A stretch of 64,000 nt of DNA, from contig PNAE01000007.1 of assembly GCA_003169895.1 (NCBI GenBank), positions 1,004,314 to 1,068,313 on the forward strand, in the 5' to 3' direction. The translations under genes were made by a program, and so were the position numbers. The notes under the pieces are model-generated. The model saw only the letters and a list, made by a program, of their open reading frames with translations. It was not told the origin of the DNA and did no database searches. This stretch comes from Gemmatimonadota bacterium (lineage in GTDB: Bacteria; Gemmatimonadota; Gemmatimonadetes; Gemmatimonadales; GWC2-71-9). This document shows, in pieces, positions 13,320 to 37,043 of this stretch. Within the stretch, counting starts at the first letter, position 1, and every line of letters starts with the position of its first letter.

Positions 13320-13340
13320 GGGTCCGCATATTACTACATC

Positions 13341-15059: not shown

Positions 15060-16438
15060 GCCAGCAGGCATCGGTACTGGTGATCGACGACGAATCGGGA
15101 ATCCTCGATACGCTGCGTATTCTGCTGAAGAAGGAAGGCTTCGAAGTCACCACGGCGCAGGGCGGCAAGGCTGGACTGGACGCGATTCGCGCCAATGCCC
15201 CCGACATCGTGCTCACCGACGTGCGTATGCCGCAGGTGACCGGCCTCGACATCCTGCAGGCGGTGAAGGAGGCCGACCCGATCACGCCGGTATTGCTGAT
15301 GACCGCACAGGCGTCCTTGCAGAGCGCCATCCAGGCGGTCAACGCCGGCGCGTTCTACTATCTGCAGAAGCCGTTCGCCAACGACGAGCTGCTGGCGATC
15401 CTCCGGCGGGCGTGCGAGTTCCGGCAGATCCGGGTCGAGAACAAGCAGCTCAAGCAGGAGATCCGTCGCACGGGCGGCGGGCCCCGCCCGGTGGTGACGC
15501 GGCCCGTCGGCAAGTCGCGGCGCTTCCTCGACGTCCTGCGCTTCGCCGACGTGGTGGCGCCAACCGATTCCACCGTATTGATCGGCGGAGAGAGCGGCAC
15601 CGGCAAGGAAGTGCTGGCCCGCTACATCCACGACGCATCACTGCGAGCCGAAGGGCCGTTCCTGTCGATCAACTGCGGTGCATTGCCGGAGACACTGCTC
15701 GAAAGCGAGCTGTTCGGTCACGTCAAGGGGTCGTTCACCGGCGCCGTGCGTGACAAGCAGGGACTCTTCGCCGCCGCGCGGGGCGGGACGTTCTTCCTCG
15801 ATGAGGTCGGCGAGATGCCGCCCTCCCTGCAGGTGAAGCTGCTGCGGGTGCTGCAGCAGCGGGAAGTGATCCCGGTGGGCGCCACCGAGGCGTTGCCGGT
15901 CGACGTGCGCATCATCGCCGCGACCAACCGCGAACTCGAAGAGGAAGTGCGCCGCGGCAACTTCCGCTCGGACCTGTTCTACCGGCTCAACGTCCTGGCG
16001 ATGGATCTGCCCCCGCTGCGCGACCGGCGCGACGATCTGCTGCTGCTGATCGATCGCTTCCTGCAGGACCTGGCGAGCGATCGTGGCATGGAGGTCAAGG
16101 CGCTGACCGCCGAGGCGCTCGATGCGGTGATGGTATACGAGTGGCCCGGTAACGTCCGGGAACTGCAGAACGCACTCGAGCACGCGACTGTGCTGACCAA
16201 GGGCAGCCTGATCGAGCCGCAGCACCTGCCCGAGCGGATCACGCGCCAGAAGAAGGAACCGCTGGTGGCCGACCGCGCCCAGCCCAATCCGACCCTGGAC
16301 CTGATCGAGCGCGCGTACATCATGTTCGTGCTCCAGGCTGAAGGCGGCAACAAGACGCGCGCCGCCGAGGCGCTGGGCATCGACCCCAGCACGTTGTACC
16401 GCAAGCTTTCGCGCTACGAAGAGGTCGAGGCCACCTAG
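15056..16438 (+). CDS. pilR: PilR-like sigma-54-dependent response regulator (REC-AAA+-Fis HTH)
   Basis: REC domain (VLVIDDE.., DIVLTDVRMP) and AAA+ motifs GESGTGKEV, ESELFGHVKGSFTGA, with a C-terminal HTH. ATG 15056 overlaps the kinase stop (ATGA), and a GGGAGG RBS lies upstream. Confidence 0.85.
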   Translation: MSQQASVLVIDDESGILDTLRILLKKEGFEVTTAQGGKAGLDAIRANAPDIVLTDVRMPQVTGLDILQAVKEADPITPVLLMTAQASLQSAIQAVNAGAFYYLQKPFANDELLAILRRACEFRQIRVENKQLKQEIRRTGGGPRPVVTRPVGKSRRFLDVLRFADVVAPTDSTVLIGGESGTGKEVLARYIHDASLRAEGPFLSINCGALPETLLESELFGHVKGSFTGAVRDKQGLFAAARGGTFFLDEVGEMPPSLQVKLLRVLQQREVIPVGATEALPVDVRIIAATNRELEEEVRRGNFRSDLFYRLNVLAMDLPPLRDRRDDLLLLIDRFLQDLASDRGMEVKALTAEALDAVMVYEWPGNVRELQNALEHATVLTKGSLIEPQHLPERITRQKKEPLVADRAQPNPTLDLIERAYIMFVLQAEGGNKTRAAEALGIDPSTLYRKLSRYEEVEAT

Positions 16439-20418: not shown

Positions 20419-20421
20419 GGC

Positions 20422-21162
20422 ATGCAGCATGAACAGTTTGTTGCCCATGCTCGGCTCGAAGACCGGCACTGGTGGTTCACCGGCCGGCGCGCGATCCTCA
20501 CTGCGCTGATCCATGCGGTCGCGCCGCCCGGGGCGGGGGTAGCGCTGGTGGATGTGGGCTGCGGCACGGGTGGCAACGCCGCCGCGCTGGCGCGCGAGTA
20601 TCGGGTGCTGGGGCTCGATCCGTCGGCCGATGCCGTTGCGCTGGCGCGGTCGCGCTTTCCTGCCGTGCAGTTCATCCAGACCGACGATCCGGAAGCAGGT
20701 CGCGCCCATCTCGCCCATGGCGGCGTGGTGATCATGACCGACGTGCTGGAGCACGTGGCCGATGATCGCGACCTGCTCGCCCGCGTGATTGCCGTGCTGC
20801 CGGCGGGTGGCCACCTGATCCTCACCGTCCCCGCTGATCCCGGGCTCTGGAGCCGCCACGACACCCAGTTCGGCCACCATCGCCGGTATCGCACCGAGGA
20901 CTTTCGGGCGCTCTGGCATGACGCACCGGTCGAGGAGCGGTTGCTGACGCCATTCAACTCCCGCCTCTGGCCGGTGATCGCCACAATCCGGCGCTTCACG
21001 CACGACAACGGGAGCGATCTGCAGATACCCACGGGCCCCTTGAATGCGGTGCTCCACCGGATCTTCGCCGGCGAAGCGAAGGCGCTCGTCCGGGCGATCG
21101 ATCGTAACACGCCGGTATTTTCGCGCGGCGTGAGTCTCGCCGCGGTGCTGCGCAAGCTGTGA
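20422..21162 (+). CDS. Class I SAM-dependent methyltransferase
   Basis: SAM motif I VDVGCGTGGNA and a Methyltransf_11/23-like layout; 246 aa. Confidence 0.85.
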   Translation: MQHEQFVAHARLEDRHWWFTGRRAILTALIHAVAPPGAGVALVDVGCGTGGNAAALAREYRVLGLDPSADAVALARSRFPAVQFIQTDDPEAGRAHLAHGGVVIMTDVLEHVADDRDLLARVIAVLPAGGHLILTVPADPGLWSRHDTQFGHHRRYRTEDFRALWHDAPVEERLLTPFNSRLWPVIATIRRFTHDNGSDLQIPTGPLNAVLHRIFAGEAKALVRAIDRNTPVFSRGVSLAAVLRKL

Positions 21163-21902
21163 GCGACCTCATCCTGGTTGTGCCGGTGTACAACGAGGCG
21201 TCGCGCCTCGATCCGGCGCCGTGGCTTGAGTTCCTTGCCGCCGATCGATCCCGGGCGCTCATTTTCGTGGACGACGGCAGCGGGGATGGCACGCTCGCTG
21301 TGCTCGAAACCATCCGGGCGGCCGCACCGGCGCAGACCAGCATTCTCGGGCTGCCCGAGAACCGTGGCAAGGCGGAGGCAGTGCGGCACGGGATGCTGCA
21401 GGCGCTGGCTGCGACGGTTCGTTACGCCGGCTTCATCGACGCCGACCTGTCGGCGCCGCTCAGCGAGGTATCGCTGTTGCAGGTGGAGCTTGACGCTCGT
21501 CCGGCGGCGTCAGCGGCGTTCGGCTCGCGAGTCAAGCTACTGGGCCGCCAGATCGTGCGATCGGAGCGGCGCCACTACCTCGGCCGGATCTTCGCCACCT
21601 GCGCGTCGTTCGCATTGTCGCTGCCGGTCTACGATACCCAGTGCGGTCTGAAGTTGTTCCGCAACACGCCGGACGTTCGGGCCGCTTTTGCGACGGCCTT
21701 CCGCAGCAAGTGGATCTTCGACGTGGAATTGCTGGCCCGCCTCGCCGACTCGGCTGGCGCCGATGTGGCGTCGCGCATCCGCGAGGTTCCGCTGCAGCAC
21801 TGGGAAGAGAGAGGCTCCAGCCGGCTGCGCATGCGGGATTTCCTCTTGGCACCGTTTGAGCTGGCACGGATTCGACGACTGTACCCGTACCGCCGGCGGT
21901 AA
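21159..21902 (+). CDS. GT2 glycosyltransferase, polyprenol-phosphate sugar synthase-like (ALG5/DPM1-like)
   Basis: VVPVYNE..FVDDGSGDGT..IDADL..CGLKLF motifs. The start overlaps the upstream stop (GTGA). Confidence 0.85.
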   Translation: MSDLILVVPVYNEASRLDPAPWLEFLAADRSRALIFVDDGSGDGTLAVLETIRAAAPAQTSILGLPENRGKAEAVRHGMLQALAATVRYAGFIDADLSAPLSEVSLLQVELDARPAASAAFGSRVKLLGRQIVRSERRHYLGRIFATCASFALSLPVYDTQCGLKLFRNTPDVRAAFATAFRSKWIFDVELLARLADSAGADVASRIREVPLQHWEERGSSRLRMRDFLLAPFELARIRRLYPYRRR

Positions 21903-21905
21903 CCG

Positions 21906-22241
21906 TCAGCCATTCTTCGGGCTTGGGGTGCGGGGAGTGGCCAGCGCCAATGCCTGGGCCAAGCGCGTCAGGTCGCGTTGCATGCGCCGGATGGTGGCTG
22001 CGGTCGTCGCGAAGTGGAAGAGCGCAAAGATGATAAAAAAATAGAACATCAGGTCGGCGCCGCGTCCAACACCGAGGCGAGCAGCGACACGGTTGGTGAA
22101 CTCGGGATTGAGAATCAGCGCGACGCCGATCGCGGCGAGGCCGAGGTAGGTCACCCGATCGCCGCTGGTACTGCGCAGGCGGAAGATATAAATCGCGAAC
22201 AGTGCCAACAGGACGAGAAGAACAATCTGGGACGGACGCAT
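21906..22241 (-). CDS. Small 4-TM membrane protein (DUF2304-like GT2 partner)
   Basis: 111 aa, hydrophobic, located immediately downstream of a GT2 gene on the same strand. The family assignment is from memory of DUF2304 and is not computed. Confidence 0.65.
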   Translation of the reverse strand: MRPSQIVLLVLLALFAIYIFRLRSTSGDRVTYLGLAAIGVALILNPEFTNRVAARLGVGRGADLMFYFFIIFALFHFATTAATIRRMQRDLTRLAQALALATPRTPSPKNG

Positions 22242-22245
22242 TCGG

Positions 22246-22962
22246 CTACCTCGTTTTGGCGATCAGTAAGTCCCACAGCACGCTGACGGCGTCAATCAGC
22301 CCCTGACCTTTGGAGAGCGAATAGGGCGTGTAGGAGACGCGAACCGGAACCTCCTGGTAGCGTAGTCGCAGCCGCGCCACTTCGGCCTGAATCTCCGAGG
22401 CATGAGCCATGCGATCCTGCTGCAGGACGAGTCGGCTCAACACATCGCAACGAAAGCCGCGCATGCCATTGTGGGTGTCAGTGAGCTTCAGTCCTGTCGT
22501 CCACCGTGCCAGACGGGTGGCAAGGCGCAGCAACACCTTGCGACTTGCGGGGATGCTGCCGAGACCGTCCGGTTCAAGGAACCGGGATCCCAACGTGACA
22601 TCGGCGGTATCGCTCGCTAGCGGCGCGATTAGTCGAGGCACCGCGCTGGGGTCGTGCTGTCCGTCGGCATCGAACGTGACGACGAAGCGCATCGCGGGAT
22701 CGCGACTGGCGTATACAAATCCCGTCGCCAGTGCGGCGCCTTGCCCAACATTCACCGCGTGGCGCAGCACCCACGCACCGGCGGCCAGCGCACAGGCAGC
22801 CGTATCGTCTTCCGATCCGTCGTCGACAACCACAACGTGCCAGTGATCGTCGACCAGGCGGGCCACCACCGTGCCGATGGTCCGTGCTTCCTGATAGGCT
22901 GCAATGACGATCCAGGTCGCCCGCCGGACGAGCTGGTCTGCCGGATTCACGGATGAGGCCAT
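22246..22962 (-). CDS. GT2 glycosyltransferase (polyprenol-phosphate glycosyltransferase-like)
   Basis: Motifs VIAAYQE..VVVDDGSEDDT..FDADGQH. Start set at ATG 22962 (MASSVNP..); the upstream 124 codons of the ORF are an Arg/Gln/His-rich extension. Confidence 0.85.
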   Translation of the reverse strand: MASSVNPADQLVRRATWIVIAAYQEARTIGTVVARLVDDHWHVVVVDDGSEDDTAACALAAGAWVLRHAVNVGQGAALATGFVYASRDPAMRFVVTFDADGQHDPSAVPRLIAPLASDTADVTLGSRFLEPDGLGSIPASRKVLLRLATRLARWTTGLKLTDTHNGMRGFRCDVLSRLVLQQDRMAHASEIQAEVARLRLRYQEVPVRVSYTPYSLSKGQGLIDAVSVLWDLLIAKTR

Positions 22963-22995
22963 CAGTCCAGGGCCCGAAGGGGTGGTGTTGAACTC

Positions 22996-24609
22996 ATGCG
23001 AGATCCACGCCCGCTGGTTGTCCTCGTCCTGCTGCTGCTCGTGGTGCTCGTTGCGCGCAGATGGATCCGCGCCGTACCTGCTCTGCCGCCGTCGATGCGA
23101 CTGCGAGGGGCGGTTGCGGTCGCGGCAGCAGCGTTCACGATGGCTCTCACTGTTTGGGTTTGGGGTGGGCTGAGGGCTCCAGCGGTCGTCGATGACGAGG
23201 CAGCGTACGTGCTGCAGGCCGACCTCTTTGCTCACGGCCGCTGGACCCGCCCGAGTCCGTTGCCATCCTTGTCGTTCACGCAACCAGCTGTGCTGGTGAC
23301 GCCGGTTCTGGCGCCCAAGATGCCACCAGGTCACGCGCTGTTGCTTGCCCCAGGAGCCCTCATCGGCCTGCCGGGACTCATCCCGGTCCTGCTCAGCGGC
23401 GCAACGGCAGCGCTGCTCGTGCTGCTGGTGTGCGAAGTCCAGTCGCCGGCCGTCGCCGTGCTGACGGTGATTGTGTGGCTCACGTTCGCCGGCCAGATGC
23501 GTTGGCGTGCCTCATACTTCTCGGAAATTACTACCGGCATGCTTTGGCTGCTGGGGTGGTGGGCCCTGCTGCGCTGGCGACAGACGCGACGCACCGGGTG
23601 GTTGCTGCTCCTTGCTACGGCCATCGGCTGGGGTGCCATCACCCGACCACTCACCATGCTCGCTTTCGCGCTTCCAATTGGTATTGTCGTTCTGCGCGAC
23701 GTGATCCGCGGGAAGCACTGGCGACAGTTGGCCGGTGCGATGGCCGTAGGTGTTGCCTGCCTCGCGTTGCTACCAATCCAGAACTACGAAGTGCTCGGAA
23801 ACTGGCGGGAGAGTCCGCTGGCGCTGTACACGAGCGAATACATGCCGTTTGACCGAATTGGATTCGGGTTTGACTCTACACCGCCGTCGCTTGGGCTGCC
23901 GGACGACCTGCAAGCAGCGCAGTTGCCGATCATGGCCCGCCATCGGGAGCATCAACCGAGTGCGTTACCACGGGTCCTTGCCACCCGGCTCTGGGAACTT
24001 CGCATGTCGACGTTCGGTGGGTGGCGGGTACTCTGGATTCCCGCGGCGATGGTCGGCGCCGCAATCATCGGTGCATCCGGATGGTTCGCGATCGCGTCGG
24101 GCTTGACGCTTTATTTGGCCTATCTGCTGTACGCCCACGAGCCACACTGGACCGTGTACTATCTCGAGGCGGCGCCGGCGGCCGCCTTCGTCTGCGCGAC
24201 AGGCCTGGCTTGGCTGCTGGCACGTGCTACGGCGGCTCGGCGTGAGCTGCCACTTGCTACCGCCGCAATGGCGGCGCTTGCGATCCTGGCGGCCGGCTGG
24301 CGGGAATTGCACACGGCCCGAACGTTCCGTGCCGGGGCGCAGAAGCCGTTTCGCGCGTTGGAACATGACGTGGCCGCGACAGGCATTCCACACGCCCTCG
24401 TCTTCATTCGTAACTCTGTCGGCCACGACCCGAGCGTCAATTTCGTGCGCAACGTGGCCGACGCTGCGCGCGCGCCAATACTGACCGCATATGATCGAGG
24501 TCCAGCGGACAAGGCCCGCACGATGGCTCATTATCCCGACCGTGCGGTGTTGTACTGGGATGGCGACCTTACGCATCTCGTCGGCCCGACGCGCGACACG
24601 CTTCCATGA
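22996..24609 (+). CDS. GT-C-fold-like polytopic membrane glycosyltransferase
   Basis: 537 aa with more than 10 TM segments, an acidic first-loop motif VVDDEAAYVLQADLF and a KMPPGH loop. Confidence 0.7.
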   Translation: MRDPRPLVVLVLLLLVVLVARRWIRAVPALPPSMRLRGAVAVAAAAFTMALTVWVWGGLRAPAVVDDEAAYVLQADLFAHGRWTRPSPLPSLSFTQPAVLVTPVLAPKMPPGHALLLAPGALIGLPGLIPVLLSGATAALLVLLVCEVQSPAVAVLTVIVWLTFAGQMRWRASYFSEITTGMLWLLGWWALLRWRQTRRTGWLLLLATAIGWGAITRPLTMLAFALPIGIVVLRDVIRGKHWRQLAGAMAVGVACLALLPIQNYEVLGNWRESPLALYTSEYMPFDRIGFGFDSTPPSLGLPDDLQAAQLPIMARHREHQPSALPRVLATRLWELRMSTFGGWRVLWIPAAMVGAAIIGASGWFAIASGLTLYLAYLLYAHEPHWTVYYLEAAPAAAFVCATGLAWLLARATAARRELPLATAAMAALAILAAGWRELHTARTFRAGAQKPFRALEHDVAATGIPHALVFIRNSVGHDPSVNFVRNVADAARAPILTAYDRGPADKARTMAHYPDRAVLYWDGDLTHLVGPTRDTLP

Positions 24610-25298
24610 GCGGTGCCCTGACCGAAAGACCCGCGCCGGCTCCGAAGGCTCTCATCTTCGATGTCGACGGCACGCTGTATCATCACACTCCCGTGCGATT
24701 GCGTCTGGCCGGGCAGCTGCTCGCTCAGCTGATTCGCCGGCCACGCTCCGGCACACGCACCATTCGGGCGCTCCGGGCATATCGCCGTGCGCTGGAAGAT
24801 CTGCGCAACACGCAGGAGAGTGACAGCGTACTCGACGTGTCGGTCGAACTACGCCGACTCGCATCGCGAGCGACCGGAATTCCAGTCGATGAGATCGAGC
24901 GTTACGTGAATGCGTGGATGTTGCGGGCGCCGCTGCCATTGCTGGCGCGCGCGCGCCGTGCCCACGTCGTCGAGGTGTGTGCTGCGGCCCGTTCGCGCCG
25001 GATCCAGCTCGCCGCCTGTTCCGACTATCCCGCCGCCGCGAAGCTCGATGGCCTCGGCCTGAGCGGATTCTTTGATGTCGTGGTCACCGCGCAGGATGCC
25101 GATGTCGGCCGTGTCAAGCCGCATCCGCGCGGCCTGCACATTGTCCTCGCGAGGCTTGGGGTCGCTGCACATGATGCCTGGTATGTCGGCGACCGGGCGG
25201 ATGTGGATGACGGAGCGGCACGCGCGGCGGGTGTCACCTCGGTCATCCTGTCGCGGCGCTATACCATGGCCCATCTCCTGCAGGACATCAGCCGTTGA
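24606..25298 (+). CDS. HAD-superfamily hydrolase (phosphatase-like)
   Basis: Motif I FDVDGTL, motif II ACSD, and motifs III/IV K..GDRADVD. ATGA overlap with the upstream gene. Confidence 0.8.
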   Translation: MSGALTERPAPAPKALIFDVDGTLYHHTPVRLRLAGQLLAQLIRRPRSGTRTIRALRAYRRALEDLRNTQESDSVLDVSVELRRLASRATGIPVDEIERYVNAWMLRAPLPLLARARRAHVVEVCAAARSRRIQLAACSDYPAAAKLDGLGLSGFFDVVVTAQDADVGRVKPHPRGLHIVLARLGVAAHDAWYVGDRADVDDGAARAAGVTSVILSRRYTMAHLLQDISR

Positions 25299-26275
25299 TG
25301 ACCAATGCCACCATATCGACGCCTGCGCGGGGCACGCTCGCTGGTCACCTGGCGATCGCCCGGCTGGATCACTGGTCGAAGAATGTGTTCGTGCTTCCCG
25401 GCGTTGTTGCCGCCCTCGCACTGAACCCCACCGCAAATACTAGCGGTCTTGCCTCACGCTTCGTTCTGGGCGTGCTGTCGGTGTGCCTGATCTCCTCGAG
25501 CAACTACACTCTCAACGAAATCGTCGATGCGCCGTTCGATCTTTATCACCCCGACAAGCGCCATCGCCCGGTGCCGAGCGGCCGGGTCAATCTTCCACTC
25601 GGCTACTTGCAGTGGTTAGTACTTGCGGCCGCCGGTGCGGCACTCGGACTCAAGATCGGTGCGGCCTTCTCGGCCTCGGTCGCGGCGCTCTGGGTGATGG
25701 GATGCGGGTATAACCTGCGGCCATTGCGGACCAAGGATGTACCGTACCTGGATGTACTCACCGAAGCCATCAACAATCCGCTCCGGCTGCTGGCGGGTTG
25801 GTACATTGTCGATGCGCGGGTGTTTCCGCCGGCGACGCTGCTCCTGAGCTACTGGATGGTGGGCTGCTACTTCATGGCGATCAAGCGATTCGCCGAATGC
25901 CGGCAGCTCGGCAACGGGCCGCAGCGGTCGGCGTACCGCCGGTCACTGGCGTTTTTCACGCCCGAACGACTGCTGACCACGGTAATGTTCTACGGAGCAG
26001 CGGCGATGCTGTTCTTTGGCGCGTTCATCATGCGCTATCGCCTCGACCTGATTATTTCGTTCCCACTGGTGGCGCTCGTGATGGCGATGTATCTGCGGCT
26101 GGGGTTCAGGCCGGGAAGTGCCGCGCAACATCCCGAGAAGCTCTATCGCGAACCGGCACTGATGGTCGCGGTATGCGTCTGCGCGCTGGTTATGGGCCTG
26201 CTCTTGTTCGTGCACGTGCCATTGCTCGATACCGTGTTCCCGCCGACTGTTCCGACCGCAGACTGGACTCGTTGA
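25295..26275 (+). CDS. UbiA-family prenyltransferase, decaprenyl-phosphate phosphoribosyltransferase-like
   Basis: About 8-9 TM segments. The Asp-rich motif NYTLNEIVDAPFD followed by HPDKRHRPVPSGRV resembles the DPPR-synthase subfamily pattern (NDxxDxxxD..HP.KR.RP.A.G). Confidence 0.8.
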   Translation: MMTNATISTPARGTLAGHLAIARLDHWSKNVFVLPGVVAALALNPTANTSGLASRFVLGVLSVCLISSSNYTLNEIVDAPFDLYHPDKRHRPVPSGRVNLPLGYLQWLVLAAAGAALGLKIGAAFSASVAALWVMGCGYNLRPLRTKDVPYLDVLTEAINNPLRLLAGWYIVDARVFPPATLLLSYWMVGCYFMAIKRFAECRQLGNGPQRSAYRRSLAFFTPERLLTTVMFYGAAAMLFFGAFIMRYRLDLIISFPLVALVMAMYLRLGFRPGSAAQHPEKLYREPALMVAVCVCALVMGLLLFVHVPLLDTVFPPTVPTADWTR

Positions 26276-26277
26276 CG

Positions 26278-28005
26278 CTATTGCCGGGCGGCCGCGCGCG
26301 TCGCCGGTCGAACCACTTCGAGAACGCCCGCGCAACCGGGAACGCTCTGCAGGCGGTTCGGCGGAATCGTGGTGTCGGCCGGTACTGCGACAACGTACGT
26401 AACGCTCAAGGCGTCCAGAAACTTCGAGCGCTCATCACCGGATAGCTGGGGCCAGTTGTGCGGCAGCTCAAGGCCGATGCGGTCGAGATAGTAGCCCACG
26501 GCATACGCCGCCACGTCGTCGGTGGCCATCAATACCCGTGCGGTGCGCGGTAGGCAGCGGTCAAGATCTCTGATCGGGACACCTGAGATCAGCCCATCAC
26601 GTCCGCCGCGGGAAATGTGTTGCAAGTCCATGAAGTCGGGATGCTGGTGGACAACCTGTTCGGCGTAGAGAGACTTCTTCCACCCCAGTGCGGCGCCGAT
26701 CAGCAGCGGCACCATGGCCATCCTCCGGAATCGGTGCACTGGCGATGTCACCAGCAGTACCAGGCTCCAGAAGGATATGGCGAGGAAAATGGGGGCGAAG
26801 TACCGCAGTTCGAAAAATCCGGTAGTCAATGGACCGGCGAGCTGTGCAATGAACGCCGCGACGATGACGAGCGTCACGCCAACCTGTCGGCTGGTCCATC
26901 GAGCCAAGTTCCCCGGTTGCGTGCGAGTCCACAGGGCAAAGACAGCAAGCAGGGCGGGAGCGAATGCATAGCGCGTGGTGCCGCGCCAGAGCGAACTGGT
27001 GATGCCGGGCAGGTTGTGCGTCACACGCGCCAGCCATTCCGCACCTGCTTCGCGCAAGGTCGGCGGAAACACCGGGTACCAGTTATTCACGAAATTGATG
27101 GCGGCACTCTTCGCGACCATCGCGTTGTCGCTGGCGAACGCAACTCCGAAGGCCACCCGAGAATAGAGCATCCACGGCAGGAGCATCAACGCGACGGCGA
27201 TACCGTAACCTGTCAGCCAGCGAAGCACCCCGCCGCGCTGCCAGGCGAACGGAAGGCCCAACCCGAGGACCACGACGATCGGCGCGCTGTCGAAACGCGT
27301 CATCCAGAGCAATCCAGCCAGCCCACCGACGATCAGCCCGGTTCGAAAACCTGTCTCGCGCAGCCGGGTCAGTGCGATGCCGATGGCGACATAGCAGAGC
27401 AGTGCCGCCGCCATGGACCTCCCGCCGAGTATGTCGTCGAGGAATGGTCCGTAACTGAGGAGTGCAGCCCATATCGCAACCGCCGCGAAGTGCCTGCGTC
27501 CGCGTGCGTGAACGAGCGGACGCAACATGATTGCGATGCAGGGCAGGAGCCCAACGGTGAACACCGCCGCGGTGATGATACCCAGCCACGGACCCAAGCG
27601 AAGCAGGCGTGAGACCAGGAAGAGAATCAGTGGCCACACCGGCGGGAAACTGTCGGCGGCATCGGTGAGGTACTGGTACTGTCGGACCAATGGAATATGG
27701 TATGGTATCGATCCGAACGACCGCGCCAGCAGCAGATAGGCCCAGCTGTCAGGGGTGAGCGGCGGGCGTACGCGAGTGGAGATCAGACCGAGCAAGAGCA
27801 GCAGCCCTGTAGCCAACATGATGATGGCCGCAATGCTCGACCAGCCATAGAGCCGTAAGGTGCTCACCATGCGTAGCAGGCGGCGCACGCGGGAAGTTCG
27901 CGTCACGGAGTCAGCGACAAATCGCCCTCGCGCCGAAGATGACAGGAATGTCAATCGCCCGACGGGAAGTATCGTGCGCACCGTCCGGCGTGTCGAGGGC
28001 CGCAA
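26278..28005 (-). CDS. GT-C-fold-like polytopic membrane protein
   Basis: 575 aa with more than 10 TM segments, a first-loop motif TPDSWAYLLLARSF and SFPPVWPL. An alternative start at ATG 27870 (MVSTLRLYGW..) is possible. Confidence 0.65.
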   Translation of the reverse strand: MRPSTRRTVRTILPVGRLTFLSSSARGRFVADSVTRTSRVRRLLRMVSTLRLYGWSSIAAIIMLATGLLLLLGLISTRVRPPLTPDSWAYLLLARSFGSIPYHIPLVRQYQYLTDAADSFPPVWPLILFLVSRLLRLGPWLGIITAAVFTVGLLPCIAIMLRPLVHARGRRHFAAVAIWAALLSYGPFLDDILGGRSMAAALLCYVAIGIALTRLRETGFRTGLIVGGLAGLLWMTRFDSAPIVVVLGLGLPFAWQRGGVLRWLTGYGIAVALMLLPWMLYSRVAFGVAFASDNAMVAKSAAINFVNNWYPVFPPTLREAGAEWLARVTHNLPGITSSLWRGTTRYAFAPALLAVFALWTRTQPGNLARWTSRQVGVTLVIVAAFIAQLAGPLTTGFFELRYFAPIFLAISFWSLVLLVTSPVHRFRRMAMVPLLIGAALGWKKSLYAEQVVHQHPDFMDLQHISRGGRDGLISGVPIRDLDRCLPRTARVLMATDDVAAYAVGYYLDRIGLELPHNWPQLSGDERSKFLDALSVTYVVAVPADTTIPPNRLQSVPGCAGVLEVVRPATRAAARQ

Positions 28006-28220
28006 GCGAGCGAAACCAGTTGCCGGAGCACGTCGGGCGACGGCGCTCTTTCATCGTCGGCAGCGTCGTACTTCTCTCGTCGAAGGTCATCGTTTAGGTC
28101 CTCTGAGATAGCGGGGCTGTCACCCCGCGGTTCGGATCCTTCTCCCCAGAGAAGTTAGACAACGGGCTTTTTCCTGGAACCAACGGCGATTGAGCGACAC
28201 AGGTATCTGCACAGTATACG

Positions 28221-28325
28221 TCGACCCTGCAAACGTAAACCTCGACCCGGTCGACTCGAACCTCGACGCTGAAAACACGACCCTCGACCCTCTCGACTCA
28301 AACCTCGATCCTGCCGACTTTATTT
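28221..28325. repeat. Five phased 21-nt direct repeats built from TCGAnCC heptads
   Basis: Units tcgaccctgcaaacgtaaacc / tcgacccggtcgactcgaacc / tcgacgctgaaaacacgaccc / tcgaccctctcgactcaaacc / tcgatcctgccgactttattt. They lie directly 3' of the minus-strand stop at 28320-28322, with no inverted partner. Confidence 0.7.
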
Positions 28326-30251
28326 CCGATCCGGCCCACCGTGTGGCGGTGGCGGCGGCGGCGGCGGCGCGAACAGCGCGATCCCCGGTTGTCCCGGTCC
28401 GACGTCCCATTGCACCACTGTACGCCAGTCCGCCGCCCACGCCGGCGGCGTTCCTGCGTGGGGCCAGATCTGCAGCAGCAGGCAAGGGGGGCCGCGGCGC
28501 TCCATGAATCGCGCCGATGCATTGGTGACGCCAACAGCCCGAAAGCGCGCGTCACTTCCCGCATGGCGCACCAGTACCATCGCGCCGTATTCCCAGGCAT
28601 CCGGCCAGGTGTGCATGCCGACGTCGGCGCAGCCGCTGCTGGCGATCCTCTTCGCGACATCCACGTACGGTCGGGCGAGCACCGGGTCGTACATGAAGTA
28701 GCCGAGGTTTCGCGGGGTCGCCAGAATGCTGGGTCGCGGGGTGATCGCCCTGCCAGGGAGCGTCACCAGTGGGCGGGTGTAGTTGAAGAGCGCCTCCGGA
28801 AGCGCGGCCAGCGTGAGCACAACCAGCACGCCGCGCCGTGCCGCCAGCGGAAGGCGCTCAAGCCACAGCGCAACCCACGCCAGCGCCAGTACGAACAGCG
28901 GCGTGTGCAATCGGCTGTGGTAGCTCTGCCACTTCAACTGGGCGCAGAAGATCACGAAGCCCGTGACGACCGCGACGGGGAACCAGAGCCGGACGCCTGT
29001 TGATCTCGCCACGACCAATCCGATCAGGCAGCCGAACACCAGAAGTAGATGGAGCGGATTCGGAGCGGATTCCTCATGAGTGTTCCACGGCGTCGGAATG
29101 AAGTGCGGGTTCCATGTGGTGCGCTGATCATCCGGATTGGCCCCGATCGCACGCGAAACCGTTGCCACGCCATTCGCGACCGCTGCATTGATCCTATCTG
29201 ACGGCGTACCGAAATGGAGCGACAGGTTTCGCAGCACGTTCCCGATTACCTGATTCGGAGCCTTCGTGGTCATGGGAATGTTCCAGACCGGGTCACCACG
29301 AACGTCGCCGAAAACAGCCTGGTTGCGGGCCAGCTGCGGCCCAGCGATCAGCAGGCTAGCCGCCAGCAAAGCCGCGACCAACGAACCAGCCGCGCGACTC
29401 CGTCCTGTCGAAGCAAGCAGCACGATCGCTGGCAACAGCGCCACTCCACCGAACAATACGGCAGTCTGTTTGGTGCCGACTGCCAACCCGAATGACAGCG
29501 CGCAGAGGGTCAGGTCCGTGGAGCGCTGTGGTGTCGAGAGCAAGCGATAGCCGAACGCGCACGCCAGCACCGCCCAGCACGCCGCCGTGACATCAGTCTG
29601 GGTGCCGCTGGCTTGTGCGACCGCCATCGGTAACGTCGCCACGAGCGCCGCCGCCATCGTCGCTGCGGCCCGTCCGCCGCCGAGCGCGCGCGCGAGCAAT
29701 GCCGCGCCGCCACACGCTCCGGCAAACCCGAGCCACTGCACGAAGTTCGCGAAGCGATCCCCGCCGCTGAGTAGTTGGAACTGCAGCACGGCGTATTCCG
29801 ACCACGACGGCATGAACAGTTGCCGGGTGTTCCAGGTCGCGAACGGGTGCAGCGAGCCCTGCTGGATCCACCGTTCCACTCGCACGAGATGGTAGGTGAG
29901 GCCATCGTACGAGTTCGGCGCAGCGATGTACGCAACCAGCCCAGTCAACGCCAACAACAGGACGACTGGCACCAGTTCCTCGATGTGCGACCGCTCGCTG
30001 GCGTGAGGTGCGACACCGATGGAAGCCGTCGATCGCCGCGCGACGACGAGTGCAAGCAGCGTTCCCACGGACCACACGACGGCACTTCCAATCGCGGTGA
30101 GCGCTCCGGCGCCGGACTGGACCTCCGTGCCCACCGCAATCGTAACGCCAAACACGATCAACGCTGCGGCGGCCGACTCGAGCCACTCTCTCCCGGTTCG
30201 CCGGAACGCGAGCGTCCACGCGAGCAGGCTCAGCAACGGAAGAAGGATCAT
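28320..30251 (-). CDS. GT-C-fold-like polytopic membrane protein with poly-Pro C-terminus
   Basis: Start set at ATG 30251 (MILLPLLSLLAW..), overlapping the upstream stop (ATGA). Loop motif NSYDGLTYHLVRVERW and more than 12 TM segments. The C-terminal ..APPPPPPPPHGG is encoded by a (CGG)n tract at ~28346-28370. Confidence 0.7.
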   Translation of the reverse strand: MILLPLLSLLAWTLAFRRTGREWLESAAAALIVFGVTIAVGTEVQSGAGALTAIGSAVVWSVGTLLALVVARRSTASIGVAPHASERSHIEELVPVVLLLALTGLVAYIAAPNSYDGLTYHLVRVERWIQQGSLHPFATWNTRQLFMPSWSEYAVLQFQLLSGGDRFANFVQWLGFAGACGGAALLARALGGGRAAATMAAALVATLPMAVAQASGTQTDVTAACWAVLACAFGYRLLSTPQRSTDLTLCALSFGLAVGTKQTAVLFGGVALLPAIVLLASTGRSRAAGSLVAALLAASLLIAGPQLARNQAVFGDVRGDPVWNIPMTTKAPNQVIGNVLRNLSLHFGTPSDRINAAVANGVATVSRAIGANPDDQRTTWNPHFIPTPWNTHEESAPNPLHLLLVFGCLIGLVVARSTGVRLWFPVAVVTGFVIFCAQLKWQSYHSRLHTPLFVLALAWVALWLERLPLAARRGVLVVLTLAALPEALFNYTRPLVTLPGRAITPRPSILATPRNLGYFMYDPVLARPYVDVAKRIASSGCADVGMHTWPDAWEYGAMVLVRHAGSDARFRAVGVTNASARFMERRGPPCLLLQIWPHAGTPPAWAADWRTVVQWDVGPGQPGIALFAPPPPPPPPHGGPDRK

Positions 30252-31921
30252 GGAACGGAGTCTCGGTGAGTTGTCGTGTGAGTCCCCGACGCGGCAGCGG
30301 CCCGCAACCGCTCCACCCGCTCCCGTTCGGATTGGAACTCGGTCTGGCCCAGGGCCAGCGCCAGAGCGGCATACCGGTCGGCCAGGTCCCACTGGTGCTC
30401 AGTGAGCAGGCACTCGATCAACTTGGCCCGGAGTGACGGAGCCTCCGGCTCCAGCCGCACGCCCGCGGCGAGAACCGGAACCGCGGCCGCACATTGTCCG
30501 TCAGTCCGAAGGAACTGGCCCAAACGTTCGTTGACCTCGTAATCATGCGGCCAGAGTTGCAGGGCATGCCGGAGGTTGGCGATTGCGCGAGGGTGGTCAC
30601 CCGCGCCCTCCCAATACTCGCCGGCGCCCTTCCACGCGCGATATGCCCGCGGCGCATCGTCGGTGAGATCGCTGTAGAAGCGGCGCTGGGTGCTCCAGGT
30701 CGGCACCCGGGTTGCGCTGCGAACACCAAGCACAACCCCCCAGATAACAAGTGCCGCAATCGGGATCCGTACACCCCAGACGTCTCTCGTCTCTCGTCTC
30801 TCGTCTCTCTTGTTGAGCATCGCGCCGAGAGCGATCGCCAGTCCGATGCTTGGCAGGAACAACACCCGCTCCGCCATGACAATCCCGGTTGGCACGAGCA
30901 GGTTGGCGACCGGTGCGAGTGTCACCGCCGCCCACCAAAGCCCGAAGGCGGCGGTTGGTGCGCGGCGTCGCGCAAGCGCAAATAGCGCGATGTATCCGAT
31001 CAGAAGAATCGCGCCGGCGATGTGCCGGGCAGCAACTGGCCCGCCGACCGGAATGCCGGGCGGCCCGTAGTCGGCCTGCAGATGCAGCGGCCAGAACAGC
31101 AGACGCACGTACTCGGGAATGACGCCCAGGAACGTGACGGCGCGCGCTCCGGGCCCAAGTCCGCGGAGCGCCATGGCCGGCGTATCGCCAGCGAAACCGG
31201 TCAGCACGCCGGCACGCACGACGAGCAGCAGCAGCGTAAGCGCCGTCACCGGGACCAGCAGCCGGGCGCGCCTCGCCACTCGGGCGATGCGGATGCCCTT
31301 CTCTCGTCCCTCGTCTCTCGTCTCTCCTGGCGCCAGCAGCCATTCGGCCCCGCCAAGGAGCAGGGGCGCCATGAACCCCTGTTCCTTGGCAGCTATACCA
31401 ATGGCTACTATAGCGAGAAGCGCCAGAACAACACCGGCCGTCACACCGGTACGCCGCGCGTCCAGGTAGATCGATGTGGCAGTCAGCAGTGCCAGTGCAG
31501 TCCACAGCTCCGCCTGACCCACGCCGTTGGCCACCACTTCCACGTGAACGGGGTGCACCAGGAACAGCAGCGTCGCGGCGAGGGCGGGCAGTTCCCGCAC
31601 CGCAAGCCGCCGGAGCAGTGCGTAGAGCGCCAGCCCGCAGCCGAGGTAACCGAGCAGCAGTGTGAGATGAAAAATCCACGGTGCGCCCTGACCCAGGCGC
31701 CATTGCAGCGCAAATCCGGCCACGGTCAGCGGGCGCCACAGCGTGCCGAGCCAGTATGGCGATGCCGCGATGGTATGCCACTGGGTGGGATCGGTGACCC
31801 GCGAATTCTGCACGATGGCCGGCAGGTCGTCATACACGAAGCCGTTGCGAAGGCTCAGCCCCATCGCCAGCGCTACCGCGAGCGCGCAGGCGGCGAACAC
31901 CTCGCGTCGTCGCAACCTCAT
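30248..31921 (-). CDS. TMTC-like membrane protein: GT-C-type TM domain (DUF1736-like) plus C-terminal TPR repeats
   Basis: First-loop motif GFVYDDLPAIVQNSRV, about 9-11 TM segments, and a TPR-like C-terminus (..AYRAWKGAGEYWEGAGDHPRAIANLRHALQLWP..). It contains two in-frame heptad-repeat patches. Confidence 0.8.
   Translation of the reverse strand: MRLRRREVFAACALAVALAMGLSLRNGFVYDDLPAIVQNSRVTDPTQWHTIAASPYWLGTLWRPLTVAGFALQWRLGQGAPWIFHLTLLLGYLGCGLALYALLRRLAVRELPALAATLLFLVHPVHVEVVANGVGQAELWTALALLTATSIYLDARRTGVTAGVVLALLAIVAIGIAAKEQGFMAPLLLGGAEWLLAPGETRDEGREKGIRIARVARRARLLVPVTALTLLLLVVRAGVLTGFAGDTPAMALRGLGPGARAVTFLGVIPEYVRLLFWPLHLQADYGPPGIPVGGPVAARHIAGAILLIGYIALFALARRRAPTAAFGLWWAAVTLAPVANLLVPTGIVMAERVLFLPSIGLAIALGAMLNKRDERRETRDVWGVRIPIAALVIWGVVLGVRSATRVPTWSTQRRFYSDLTDDAPRAYRAWKGAGEYWEGAGDHPRAIANLRHALQLWPHDYEVNERLGQFLRTDGQCAAAVPVLAAGVRLEPEAPSLRAKLIECLLTEHQWDLADRYAALALALGQTEFQSERERVERLRAAAASGTHTTTHRDSVP
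30781..30808. repeat. Four perfect CGTCTCT heptads inside the CDS (encode ..RDERRETRD..)
   Basis: cgtctct x4 at 30781-30808, with no inverted partner nearby. Confidence 0.75.
31298..31326. repeat. Degenerate CGTCTCT heptad patch inside the CDS (encodes ..GETRDEGRE..)
   Basis: cttctct cgtccct cgtctct cgtctct at 31298-31325. Confidence 0.6.
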
Positions 31922-33663
31922 GGCGTCGGTATGCTGTCGACCGGCGGCGGCAGGTTGATCGAGTGCAGCGGTGCGTGCACCCTGTTGGCGCTGTCAGCGA
32001 TCTCGGCGTACAGCGCCAGGGTCTTGTTCTGGACACCGAACGAAGCGCCGAGTCGAGCTTCGGCCGCGGCCTCGCGGTATCGCCCCAGGTACAGCAGGCA
32101 TGCCACTTCCGACGCACGCGCGGTGATATTGCCCGGCACCATCCGCAGGACCTCCTGGTACTCGCGGATGGCGGGATCGCAATGGCCCGCCACGCGATAC
32201 TTGTCGGCGAGGTCGATGTAGACCGGGATTCCCTTCGGAAAGAGGCGGATGGCCCGCCGGTATTCGATCTCGGCGCTGCGCTCCATCTTGACGTCGAACA
32301 GAATCGACCCGTAGGCATGGTGGGCCCGGTAGCTCAGCGGGGCGTCGATGACGCTCTGGAACCAGAGTCCGGCCACATCGTGCCACACGCGCTGGCGCGA
32401 CGCGCTGCGGCTCAACCCCATCGCAAGCAGCACGATCACGCTCGTCGCGACCGCGATCCTGCCCACGGAGCCGCGCCCGTGGATCCAGCTCCCGGCCAGC
32501 CACAGCAGGTCGCCCCCGGCGATCACTACACCCATGCTCGCGAGGAACAGGGTGCGTTCCGCGAGCACGATGCCGGTCGGGACGACGATATTGCTCACCA
32601 GTGACAAGCCGATGGCGGCCCAGAGAATTCCGAAGGTGACTTGTGGGCGGCCTCGCCGGCACACCCACGCGGTCGCGATTGCCAGCAGCAGGAGGGCAGC
32701 GCCGAGTGTCTGCGCGCTGCCCCAATGCGTCGCCGCGACGATTTCCTGCGGTGAGTAGTCGGCGCGCAGATGCGCGGGCCAGACGAACAGCCGGAACCAC
32801 TCCGGCACCACACCAAGCATGGTCAGTGCCCGCCCTCCCATGCCAAGACCGCCCAGCGCTTCAGCGGTAAAGCTGCCCGTGATGTTACCGTGCAGCGCCG
32901 CGCCGCGCACCCCAACGAACGCCACCGCCACGAGCACTAGCGACAGGAACAGCAAGCGCAGCGACGCCAGCCGTTCGCGCCATGGGCGCGGATCCGGAAT
33001 CACCGTGAGCTCGGCGGCTGCCATGAACGCAGGCAGCAGGATCGCATGTTCCTTGAACAGCAAGGCTACGGCAAACCCGCCCGCCATGGCGGCGATCCAG
33101 CGGCCCGTGAGCGGAATTCCGCTGCGGCGCCGATCGATGTACGCCGTCATCAGCAGGGCGAGCAGGAGGCCGACGACGAGTTCCGCCTGGTTGACTGCGA
33201 CCGCCACCGCTTCCACGTGGACGGGGTGAACCGCGAAGAATGCCGCAGCCAGCCATGCGGCACCGGGATTGATCAGGCGCTTGGCCAGCCGGTACACCGC
33301 GAACGTCGTTCCGAGGTAGAGCAGGATGGACACGGTCCAGAACACGACCGGCCGCCCACCGCCGGTGACCCATTCGATCGCGAACATCAGCGACGTGAAC
33401 GGCCGGTACAGGTCTCGCGCGAAAGGCGCCGGCCAATACGCCTGGTTGAAGAACGTCCACGGTCGCGCGAGCGTGTGGACTAGTGGCTGCAGCTTGATAA
33501 TGGGTAGGTCGTCCTGAACCCAGCCGTTGCCCAGGCAGGTCACGGTCGACCCCAGCACCAGCAGGACCAGTGCTGCCGGGGCCGTCCAGTTCGGAAAGCG
33601 CAGGTGGCGCGGATCGGAATTGGTCAGTTGCACGCGCGGCTCCACTGACGAGAAAACTGGCAA
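31918..33663 (-). CDS. TMTC-like membrane protein (GT-C-type TM domain plus TPR repeats), paralogue
   Basis: Motif NGWVQDDLPIIKLQPLV and the same architecture as 30248-31921. TPR-like C-terminus (..YRRAIRLFPKGIPVYIDLADKY..). Its stop overlaps the downstream start (ATGA). Confidence 0.8.
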   Translation of the reverse strand: MPVFSSVEPRVQLTNSDPRHLRFPNWTAPAALVLLVLGSTVTCLGNGWVQDDLPIIKLQPLVHTLARPWTFFNQAYWPAPFARDLYRPFTSLMFAIEWVTGGGRPVVFWTVSILLYLGTTFAVYRLAKRLINPGAAWLAAAFFAVHPVHVEAVAVAVNQAELVVGLLLALLMTAYIDRRRSGIPLTGRWIAAMAGGFAVALLFKEHAILLPAFMAAAELTVIPDPRPWRERLASLRLLFLSLVLVAVAFVGVRGAALHGNITGSFTAEALGGLGMGGRALTMLGVVPEWFRLFVWPAHLRADYSPQEIVAATHWGSAQTLGAALLLLAIATAWVCRRGRPQVTFGILWAAIGLSLVSNIVVPTGIVLAERTLFLASMGVVIAGGDLLWLAGSWIHGRGSVGRIAVATSVIVLLAMGLSRSASRQRVWHDVAGLWFQSVIDAPLSYRAHHAYGSILFDVKMERSAEIEYRRAIRLFPKGIPVYIDLADKYRVAGHCDPAIREYQEVLRMVPGNITARASEVACLLYLGRYREAAAEARLGASFGVQNKTLALYAEIADSANRVHAPLHSINLPPPVDSIPTP

Positions 33664-33779
33664 CGCAGCCCCGACGGGGTGACTCCGGGCTTGCAGAGTT
33701 CAATGCTCGGCACCGGCCAACCGCTGTCGGCTCGGCGCAACAGCGCCCGCCGAACACCTTGTCCGACAACAACTTACTG

Positions 33780-33794
33780 GCAAGCGTTGTGCCG
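33780..33794 (-). promoter_or_regulatory. Candidate sigma-54 promoter for the minus-strand GT-C operon
   Basis: The minus strand reads cGGCAC-AACGC-TTGC, with GG and GC separated by the canonical 10 nt. It lies about 117 nt upstream of ATG 33663. Confidence 0.55.
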
Positions 33795-33810
33795 TGGCAC
33801 CGCTGTTGCA
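33795..33810 (+). promoter_or_regulatory. Sigma-54 promoter motif upstream of the first pilin gene
   Basis: TGGCAC (33795-33800) - cgctg - TTGCA (33806-33810) exactly matches the TGGCAC-N5-TTGCW consensus. It lies 86 nt upstream of ATG 33896. Confidence 0.7.
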
Positions 33811-33895
33811 ATTGGTTTGCCGCGGCAACGCTAGGCTCGGCTCGGACCTGGCGCCAGAGGCCGAGAACCCCAACGCCACCGAACGGAGATCGAAC

Positions 33896-34282
33896 ATGTT
33901 GCGCAATCGCAAGGGCTTTACCCTGATCGAGCTGCTGATCGTAGTCGTGATCATCGGCATCTTGGCGGCCATCGCCATCCCGAAGTTCGCCGCGACGAAG
34001 GACAAGGCGAAGCTCGCTTCGGTCAAGACCGACGTCCGCAACTCGGAGACCGCCGAAGAGGCGTACTTCTCCGACTACGCGACGTACGGCACGTTCACGC
34101 AGCTGCAGACCGCCAGCAACTTCAATCTGTCGAGCGGTAACACGATGACCATCGGGACCAACGTCAGCGGGTATACGACCACCGCAACGAACTCGACGAT
34201 CTCGAGCGGCATCACGACCTGCCACGTGCAGGTTGCGGCGGGCGCGACGTCGGGTGACGACGGCTACATCCGTTGCCCCTGA
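33896..34282 (+). CDS. pilA: Type IV major pilin (type IVa-like)
   Basis: MLRNRKG|FTLIELLIVVVIIGILAAIAIPKF.. is a prepilin leader plus hydrophobic helix with Glu5. C-terminal Cys pair (..TTCHVQ...IRCP). GGAG lies upstream of the ATG. Confidence 0.9.
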   Translation: MLRNRKGFTLIELLIVVVIIGILAAIAIPKFAATKDKAKLASVKTDVRNSETAEEAYFSDYATYGTFTQLQTASNFNLSSGNTMTIGTNVSGYTTTATNSTISSGITTCHVQVAAGATSGDDGYIRCP

Positions 34283-34886: not shown

Positions 34887-35273
34887 ATGCGCAACTCACG
34901 TAGCGGCTTCACCCTGATCGAGCTTCTGATTGTGGTCGTGATCATCGGGATCCTGGCAGCCATCGCCATCCCGAAGTTCGCCGCGACCAAGGACAAGGCC
35001 AAGCTGGCGTCAGTCAAGGCGGACGTGCGCAACTCCGAGACCGCCGAAGAGGCCTACTTCTCGGACTTCGCCACCTACGCGGTCTACGCCCAGCTGCAGA
35101 CTGCGACCAACTTGCTCATCTCCCCGGGCAACACCATCAGCATTGCGACGAACGCCAGCGGTTACACGGTTACCGCGACGAACAGTTCGATCTCGACCGG
35201 CATCACCAGCTGTCAGGTTCAGGTGGGCGCCGGGGCGACGACTGGGATTGACGGGCAGATCAAGTGCCCGTGA
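34887..35273 (+). CDS. Type IV major pilin paralogue
   Basis: MRNSRSG|FTLIELLIVVVIIGILAAIAIPKFAATKDKAKLASVK.. is almost identical to the first pilin over ~55 aa, with a divergent C-terminal half and a conserved Cys pair. Confidence 0.9.
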   Translation: MRNSRSGFTLIELLIVVVIIGILAAIAIPKFAATKDKAKLASVKADVRNSETAEEAYFSDFATYAVYAQLQTATNLLISPGNTISIATNASGYTVTATNSSISTGITSCQVQVGAGATTGIDGQIKCP

Positions 35274-36866: not shown

Positions 36867-36882
36867 TGGCACGGGGAGTGCT
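36867..36882 (+). promoter_or_regulatory. Candidate sigma-54 promoter upstream of pilM
   Basis: TGGCACGgggaGTGCT has GG (36868-9) and GC (36880-1) at canonical spacing. The -12 box GTGCT deviates from TTGCW. It lies 160 nt upstream of ATG 37044. Confidence 0.45.
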
Positions 36883-37043
36883 ACCTACCAATTCTGAAAC
36901 TCGCGGCCGCGGCCCGTTCCGGGTCGGCAGGACCAAAGCCAAGTGGTTACTTTGCAAAGGGTTACTCGGTCATACCTGGTTCGAGGTCTGGACTTCGGGC
37001 AGCGTACGTTGCGAGCACCCTCCACCGCACAATCCGGGCTCCT

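Follow-up and report, generated by a model that had tools for sequence, protein, structure and literature searches.

A sigma-54-type pilin promoter conserved across Gemmatimonadales, and a clade-specific element that may be its weak divergent partner

Results

Gene content and the intergenic region

The subject of this analysis is a 262-nt intergenic stretch within a 64-kb window (the whole stretch of DNA analysed, from contig PNAE01000007.1 of an uncultured Gemmatimonadales genome). It separates the gene for a major type IV pilin, on the plus strand, from GT-C1, the first gene on the divergent strand, and it is very probably the enhancer-dependent control region of the pilin gene. From the letters alone, an earlier note had proposed that two sigma-54 promoters stand back to back here, one for the pilin gene and one for a four-gene operon of GT-C glycosyltransferases, and that the two sets of genes are co-regulated. 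The features discussed are collected in Table 1. Past the major pilin gene, the plus strand continues with a 130-aa gene without a domain match, a second pilin, minor pilins and pilMNOPQ. The major pilin weakly matches the Myxococcus-type PilA, and an identical protein is found on at least 24 public contigs, including contig PMSL01000122 of a Gemmatimonadota metagenome-assembled genome (GCA_003167595.1; source site Stordalen Mire). The second pilin (34887-35273), a 128-aa paralogue 77% identical to the major one, has no sigma-54 motif ahead of its gene. On the minus strand, the start of GT-C1 is most likely the GTG at 33633, with GGAG six nt earlier, and gene callers agree on its 571-aa product. 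GT-C1, GT-C2 and GT-C3 are joined by 4-nt overlaps and are thus translationally coupled. The fourth large membrane protein gene is set apart by a gap of 449 nt (27871-28319), in which no sigma-54-like motif was found, and it may have its own promoter; what was proposed as one operon is more likely a set of three coupled genes and a separate fourth.

Table 1. Coordinates of features in the 64-kb window
Feature	Position	Strand	Remarks
PAS histidine kinase	13119-15059	+	PAS/HisKA/HATPase
NtrC-family sigma-54 activator	15035-16438	+	Response_reg, Sigma54_activat (AAA+), HTH_8; GSFTGA at 15728
Fourth large membrane protein	26278-27870	-	gene calls on identical contig; no Pfam match
GT-C3	28320-30251	-	membrane glycosyltransferase-like, TPR repeats
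GT-C2	30248-31921	-	membrane glycosyltransferase-like, TPR repeats
GT-C1	31918-33633	-	PMT_2-domain membrane glycosyltransferase, C-terminal TPR repeats
Distal conserved dyad, CTTGCAgAgTtCAAt (CTTGCA-N3-TCCAAG)	33690-33704		enhancer candidate; not listed in the earlier note
Inverted repeat TGTCG-N8-CGACA	33725-33742		half-sites kept and spacer variable in one subclade (GT-C1 identity 77% or more)
Middle conserved block, TTGTCC-N7-ACTTAC	33759-33778		IHF-like core CAA-N4-TTA; not listed as such in the earlier note
Sub-consensus sigma-54-like motif, cGGCACaacgcTTGCc	33779-33794	-	faces the GT-C genes
Predicted sigma-54 -24/-12 promoter of the major pilin, TGGCACcgctgTTGCA	33795-33810	+	perfect consensus, order-wide conservation
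Palindrome TTGCCGCGGCAA	33817-33828		only its right half, GGCAACGCT, at the predicted pilin mRNA start, is conserved
Major type IV pilin gene	33896-34282	+	128 aa; N_methyl match 1.8e-10

The plus-strand promoter

The plus-strand motif consists of TGGCAC (33795-33800), cgctg and TTGCA (33806-33810), matches the sigma-54 consensus at all 11 specified positions, and is separated from the pilin ATG (33896) by 85 nt. It is the sole match without mismatch to TGGCACN5TTGCW in the window, where 0.03 would be expected and 3 of 100 shuffled sequences gave one. A profile of GT-C1 relatives yielded 80 Gemmatimonadota loci, 53 of them with a divergent pilin gene no more than 900 nt from GT-C1, and in 47 of these 53 Gemmatimonadales loci a TGGCAC/T-N5-TTGC box stands 68-170 nt upstream of the pilin ATG. 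Scoring with a position weight matrix had been called for; a sigma-54 matrix built from 50 distinct pilin promoters outside the window's clade and applied to 127,950 window positions placed the plus-strand site first, with 22.3 bits. With conservation across the order and first rank under an independent matrix, TGGCAC-N5-TTGCA is very probably the sigma-54 promoter of the pilin gene, as the earlier note had read it. The predicted transcription start falls at about 33820-33822, which would give a 5′ untranslated region (UTR) of about 75 nt.

Another box of sigma-54 type, TGGCACggggaGTGCT, is found at 36867-36882 on the plus strand, 177 nt upstream of pilM (ATG at 37044). Of 18 listed rows, 17 have the pattern TGGCACG-N4-GTGC ahead of pilM, at a distance of 153-178 nt; the rows represent 15 distinct loci and include three identical copies of the window's contig. 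This box, conserved across the order, indicates that the lineage uses sigma-54 for pilus genes. About 65 nt downstream of the pilM box (within 36930-37043) there is GTAAGT-N7-GGACAAC-NN-GTTG, which is the middle-block motif of the pilin region on the other strand, and in relatives a sigma-70-like TTGACT-N18-TACCGT follows it.

The predicted pilin 5′ UTR (33822-33890) is itself strongly kept in the window's clade and in its sister clade, as GGCAACGCTaGGCT ... CCTGGCGCTGAAGGCC ... CAACGCC, beyond the usual level for a leader. It may hold an RNA structure or a binding site; an Rfam search of the intergenic region and the pilin leader returned no match at E of 1 or less.

Conserved sites upstream of the promoter

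Two further blocks in the intergenic region are conserved. The distal dyad has the order-wide consensus C-TTGCA-rAn-TCCAA-gG in 54 distinct loci, with the G, C and A of TTGCA invariant and TCCAA nearly so, and it is unique in the window at up to one mismatch. Its distance to the start of TGGCAC is 103-104 nt in 46 of the 54 loci and 102-105 nt in 53, while the DNA between the dyad and the -24 box cannot be aligned among loci. The dyad thus supplies a dyad-symmetric upstream site at fixed phase, and such phasing, held despite wide divergence, is what would be expected of the enhancer of a sigma-54 activator; the dyad is the best candidate for the activator site of the pilin promoter. We know of no described PilR site of the form CTTGCA-N3-TCCAAG. 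Two other assignments for the dyad were ruled out: a general promoter motif, by its uniqueness in the window, and a sigma-54 site, by its GG-to-GC spacing.

The middle block, from -43 to -17 counted from the start of TGGCAC, is kept throughout the order. It matches only the CAA-N4-TTR core of the IHF consensus WATCAA-N4-TTR, and the protein that it binds, between enhancer and promoter, is probably one that bends DNA or has an accessory role. The block stands where IHF sits in classical sigma-54 promoters, among them pilE of commensal Neisseria, at which an activator site, an IHF site and an RpoN promoter are arranged in this way (PMC6528607). No gene for IHF or HU was found within the window.

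Three palindromes had been put forward as possible activator sites, and all lie where the earlier note placed them, with differing fates in the relatives. TTGTCcGACAA (33759-33769) falls inside the middle block, and its palindromy is not kept; TTGCCGCGGCAA (33817-33828) is not conserved as a palindrome in the clade alignment. Within CGCTGT-N12-ACAGCG (33722-33745) the core TGTCG-N8-CGACA is kept in one subclade and the remainder is not; this core, in whose place L095, L097 and the outgroups have other sequence (individual loci are cited by L numbers), is possibly the site of a second regulator.

At the far end of the region, the block (G/C)TGACGAGAAA at 33646-33656 (TTTCTCGTCA on the GT-C strand) stands 13-24 nt ahead of the GT-C1 start codon and is kept both in the window's clade and in its sister. 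The block does not correspond to a Shine-Dalgarno sequence or to any obvious -10 box, and may mark a basal GT-C promoter or a translation signal.

A kinase and activator pair in a glycosylation and pilus island

The PilR-like activator named in the earlier note is borne out as an NtrC-family enhancer-binding protein, with a receiver, an AAA+ domain carrying GSFTGA, and HTH_8, and a PAS histidine kinase adjoins it. The pair is encoded 17 kb from the pilin gene, inside one glycosylation and pilus island. By domains and neighbours it has what a PilS-PilR pair has (receiver, AAA+ and DNA-binding domains, an adjoining kinase, linkage to pilus genes), and 13119-16438 is a candidate PilS/PilR-like pair. 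The PilR-specific models gave no match to the 15035-16438 protein, and the best NCBIfam model, AtoC, scored 456 bits where its cut-off is 714.

A second sigma-54 activator is encoded elsewhere in the window, at 56031-57563 (+). It has a GAFTGA motif, and no receiver domain was detected in it; about 3.6 kb upstream of its gene is the third-best match of the sigma-54 matrix in the window, TGGCGCcggggTTGCT, at 52379-52394 (+), with 11.2 bits.

Between the two-component system and the pilin genes lies the large glycosylation part of the island (16439-26275 on the plus strand and 26278-33633 on the minus strand), with two LA_3751/2-like putative glycosyltransferases, a methyltransferase, a GT2 protein, a HAD hydrolase, a UbiA-family enzyme and a fifth PMT_2-like protein (22996-24609). 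The best matches of the UbiA-family enzyme, all sub-threshold, include decaprenyl-phosphate phosphoribosyltransferase. Homologues of DprE1 and DprE2 were absent among the proteins scanned, though no search of the window was aimed at them.

The minus-strand element

Abutting the pilin promoter on the minus strand are c (33794), GGCAC (33793-33789), aacgc, TTGC (33783-33780) and c (33779), with the 10-nt GG-to-GC spacing that the earlier note gave, and the two -24 boxes form the near-palindrome GTGCCgTGGCAC (33789-33800) that it described. The same letters can be laid out as a 7-3-7 dyad, (t/c)GGCAAG-N3-CGTGCCG (33778-33794), in which six of the seven position pairs are symmetric. Close relatives were gathered by 11 exact-protein look-ups, one metagenome scan (5 loci) and a genome scan (L005 and L006). 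Ten distinct sequences, namely the window, L090-L094, L006, L085, L095 and L097, carry (c/t)GGCAAG-N3-CGTGCCG directly to the left of TGGCAC, which on the minus strand reads CGGCACG-N3-CTTGCC; GT-C1 identity among them goes down to 66%. The three central bases vary; GGCAC and TTGCC show no change, and 13 core positions are invariant or nearly so. The 50 nt from the enhancer candidate to the middle block have, in these same ten sequences, diverged beyond alignment, and neighbouring unconstrained positions are saturated with change. An element kept while the DNA around it diverged is under selection. The four substitutions found within the clade (at -21, where C to T is a common variant, and at -20, -16 and -10) spare GG, GC, C-23, A-22, T-15 and T-14; this pattern does not discriminate between a sigma-54 site and a dyad, since the latter predicts much the same.

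In a neighbour-joining tree of GT-C1 the ten loci form one clade. The element is absent from the sister clade (L096, L098, L099, L100, L087, L088 and L009) and from the rest of the order, and no further copy of the dyad occurs in the window. The minus motif is thus lacking in most Gemmatimonadales that share the divergent arrangement, and it cannot be a general mode of co-regulation; of what the earlier note proposed, the pilin promoter is well supported and the divergent one only in part. One member of the sister clade, L096, has a stronger motif of non-dyad form, TGGCCCggttgTTGCT, on the same strand and 3 nt from the -24 box; for motifs as good as this (score 14 or more) the frequency is 7e-5 per position. 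Another seeming back-to-back case, TGGTATggaccTTGCA in L056, again 3 nt from the -24 box, looks like a duplicated copy of the enhancer and was discounted as an independent instance. A third, weak minus-strand match in the window (33822-33807) was rejected, not being conserved.

GT-C-strand motifs in other clades

Elsewhere in the order, sigma-54-like motifs occur on the GT-C strand at another place. Between the enhancer candidate and the GT-C start, a GG-N10-GC motif scoring at least 12 is found on that strand in 13 of the 59 distinct loci; the opposite strand has one in 4, and shuffled sequences gave a mean of 2.7 (maximum 8). This excess modestly favours sigma-54 control of the GT-C genes, as a suggestion only. 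Over the whole control region there is no excess of minus-strand motifs, the mean best score being 9.8 against 10.2 on the control strand. A clade of four loci (L039, L041, L058 and L082) keeps CGGACC-N5-TTGCA about 60 nt before the GT-C start codon, with changes in the spacer and flanks that cannot be aligned, and L046 and L028 have TGGCAC-N5-(C/G)TGCA at a similar place. GG-N10-GC motifs before GT-C1 are also present on that strand in L010, L012 and L013, and the examples across clades include GGGCCT-N5-TTGCA. In zraP-zraSR, the activator sites lie between the two promoters; in these other clades the enhancer seems, from the motif positions, to be placed likewise between two divergent promoters. 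In place of a proximal motif of this kind before the GT-C start, the window's clade has the abutting one.

Discussion

The best overall explanation of these data, to which we give about an even chance, is a sigma-54 pilin promoter accompanied by a weak divergent sigma-54 site. Sigma-54 RNA polymerase would be held as a closed complex on TGGCAC-N5-TTGCA, and an NtrC-family activator, probably the PilR-like protein encoded at 15035-16438, would bind the distal dyad, which lies some 130 to 116 nt ahead of the start. On the middle block (at about -60), a bending or accessory protein would help to bring the activator to the polymerase, and the activator would then spend ATP to open the pilin promoter, with transcription starting near 33821. 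The window's lineage would have acquired and kept a second element, CGGCAmG-N3-CkTGCCG, abutting the -24 box, and the same activator assembly would fire this weak opposite-facing site, sending leftward transcripts that begin at about 33768, cross the control region and enter GT-C1-3; a start at about 33767-33769 is predicted should the site fire, with a 5′ UTR of about 135 nt. Such divergent transcription would tie the production of pilin to its presumed glycosylation.

The doubtful part is the minus-strand element, and the proposal that it is a working, weak sigma-54 promoter for the GT-C genes falls, in our estimate, somewhat short of an even chance. Its support comes from its position, abutting the best sigma-54 site of the window, and from its conservation in relatives. 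A considerable body of observations weighs against it. The motif is sub-consensus, with two mismatches (C for T at -26 and C for A/T at -11) and a C at -16, where the lineage strongly prefers G (46 of the 50 pilin promoters used for the matrix); several pilin promoters of the order do have TTGCC for their -12 box. Under the matrix its spacing is right and its score is only 5.4 bits, rank 11 of the 127,950 positions. Two-mismatch sites are as frequent in the window as chance predicts (25 seen, 26.2 expected), and hence the sequence alone gives the motif no significance. On its upstream, pilin side there is no conserved activator site: nothing stands at the mirror-image position about 104 nt away, where an enhancer would fall on the pilin start codon. 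The only enhancer candidate would lie past the predicted minus start, at about +65 to +80, which is atypical; activators are known to work from positions downstream of the start. The middle block, moreover, would overlap the -12 to +10 region of the minus motif. In the sister clade, five loci with the same gene order have no GG-N10-GC anywhere on the GT-C strand, which means that the GT-C genes have another promoter there, and probably here too; a consensus scan found no sigma-70-type promoter for them, though it is blind to the weak -10 boxes of this lineage (e.g., TACCGT before pilM). The motif of L096 is not found in its closest relative, L098, and the excess of GT-C-strand motifs across the order shrinks, with relatedness allowed for, to about 8 independent events against 4. 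Lastly, no RpoN box was found in the six reading frames of the window. In the strongest form of the proposal, two polymerases would sit back to back on GTGCCgTGGCAC and one enhancer-bound activator beside the pair would fire both, as a compact bidirectional promoter; its origin would be the relocation, in one lineage, of a GT-C promoter from the far side of the shared enhancer. This version we regard as rather unlikely.

What was proposed as a divergent promoter is, in any case, a motif under selection in one clade and also a 17-bp dyad, and this second property opens another explanation, that the element is the operator of a dimeric transcription factor, CGGCAAG-N3-CGTGCCG, at -43 to -27 of the pilin promoter. 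The factor would modulate (probably repress or fine-tune) sigma-54 binding or activator contact in this lineage, and the likeness to a -24/-12 site would follow from the partial dyad symmetry of the sigma-54 consensus itself (GCA-N7-TGC). Judged by its bases, the operator fits about as well as a sigma-54 site: six of seven pairs are symmetric, and among the conserved bases are the Cs at -26, -16 and -11, bases that sigma-54 either can do without or disfavours and for which a dimer is the simpler account, a further count against the promoter. The 7-3-7 layout is usual for helix-turn-helix dimers (NtrC-type sites). Uniqueness in the window is as expected for a local regulator, and the sister clade manages without the element. 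Yet 9 of the 10 sequences share the single asymmetric pair (A against G) unchanged, and it is this pair that makes the halves GGCAC and TTGC; no candidate regulator gene was identified; and sigma-54-like motifs that are not dyads occur on the same strand, in the same place in L096 and as the GG-N10-GC kept by the L039/L041/L058/L082 clade. On balance an operator is a minority possibility.

The element could also be bound by sigma-54 polymerase to no productive end, as a decoy or competitor that limits the pilin promoter, or be read on the plus strand as a tandem site, tGGCAAgcgttGTGCc, 17 nt upstream of the pilin motif. Many sigma-54 sites of E. coli are transcriptionally silent and some repress overlapping promoters (PMC4591121), which lends the silent site a precedent; the plus-strand reading is likewise GG-N10-GC, and GTGC is accepted as a -12 box in this lineage upstream of pilM. 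Nevertheless, no terminator is predicted between the motif and GT-C1 and nothing there would stop transcripts, most clade members have more mismatches in the plus-strand reading (CGGCAA, GTGCC), and L096 has no GG-N10-GC on the plus strand, all of which makes this pair of explanations improbable. Less probable still is a functionless chance match, kept merely by the close kinship of the relatives: two-mismatch matches do occur at chance frequency and the motif is absent from most of the order, but its core is invariant or nearly so where the spacer and the 50-nt stretch have diverged and GT-C1 identity has dropped to 66%.

For the pilin promoter itself, close parallels exist. In the sigma-54/PilR systems of Pseudomonas aeruginosa pilA, Myxococcus xanthus pilA and Neisseria elongata pilE (with Npa, IHF and RpoN), as here, the major pilin gene is preceded by a -24/-12 promoter, a response regulator of the NtrC family is encoded nearby with its partner kinase, and there is a site at about -130 plus a conserved block before the promoter (PMC6528607, PMC6058289). 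The present case differs in its phylum, Gemmatimonadota, and in its activator, which has GSFTGA rather than GAFTGA and is best matched, below cut-off, by an AtoC-like model; and, unlike at N. elongata pilE, IHF binding is suggested here only by the CAA-N4-TTR core. Divergent sigma-54 promoter pairs under one activator are likewise known, from zraP/zraSR with ZraR and from Azotobacter Avin_02430/Avin_02450 with VnfA1 (PMC4987338, PMC9542535), and they share with this locus the opposed -24/-12 motifs in one intergenic region and a single candidate activator. The geometry is different from that of zraP/zraSR: here the -24 boxes abut (GG to GG, 4 bp), the predicted starts are about 52 nt apart, and the only conserved enhancer candidate lies outside the pair, downstream of the minus start, rather than between the promoters. 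A literature search for back-to-back sigma-54 promoters found no description of any, and a pair of abutting -24 boxes whose enhancer stands to one side would, if functional, be a new geometric variant.

The glycosyltransferases have a possible counterpart in the TfpW system of pilin glycosylation (Pseudomonas aeruginosa group IV), where a GT-C protein with C-terminal TPR repeats is also encoded beside the pilin (bioRxiv 10.1101/2020.04.19.049825). A UbiA-family enzyme (decaprenyl-phosphate phosphoribosyltransferase-like, below curated cut-offs) and a phosphatase-type hydrolase encoded nearby add to the likeness. A difference is that there are four paralogous GT-C-like genes here, divergent from pilA rather than downstream of it. 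A link between these GT-C/TPR and UbiA genes and TfpW-mediated pilin arabinosylation can be suggested by analogy only.

A sigma-54 pilin promoter served by a PilR-like system is already known, as are divergent pairs of sigma-54 promoters. Should the minus motif be an operator, it would be an ordinary lineage-specific refinement of such a promoter; should it work as a promoter, the locus would be an unusually compact bidirectional enhancer-dependent promoter, and the first case of regulation linking a pilin to a cluster of GT-C/TPR glycosyltransferases. In either case, sigma-54-type pilin promoters with an enhancer candidate locked 103-104 nt upstream run through an almost unstudied and mostly uncultured order of soil bacteria, which would extend the PilR/sigma-54 paradigm to Gemmatimonadota and offers concrete sites for the study of pilus regulation there.

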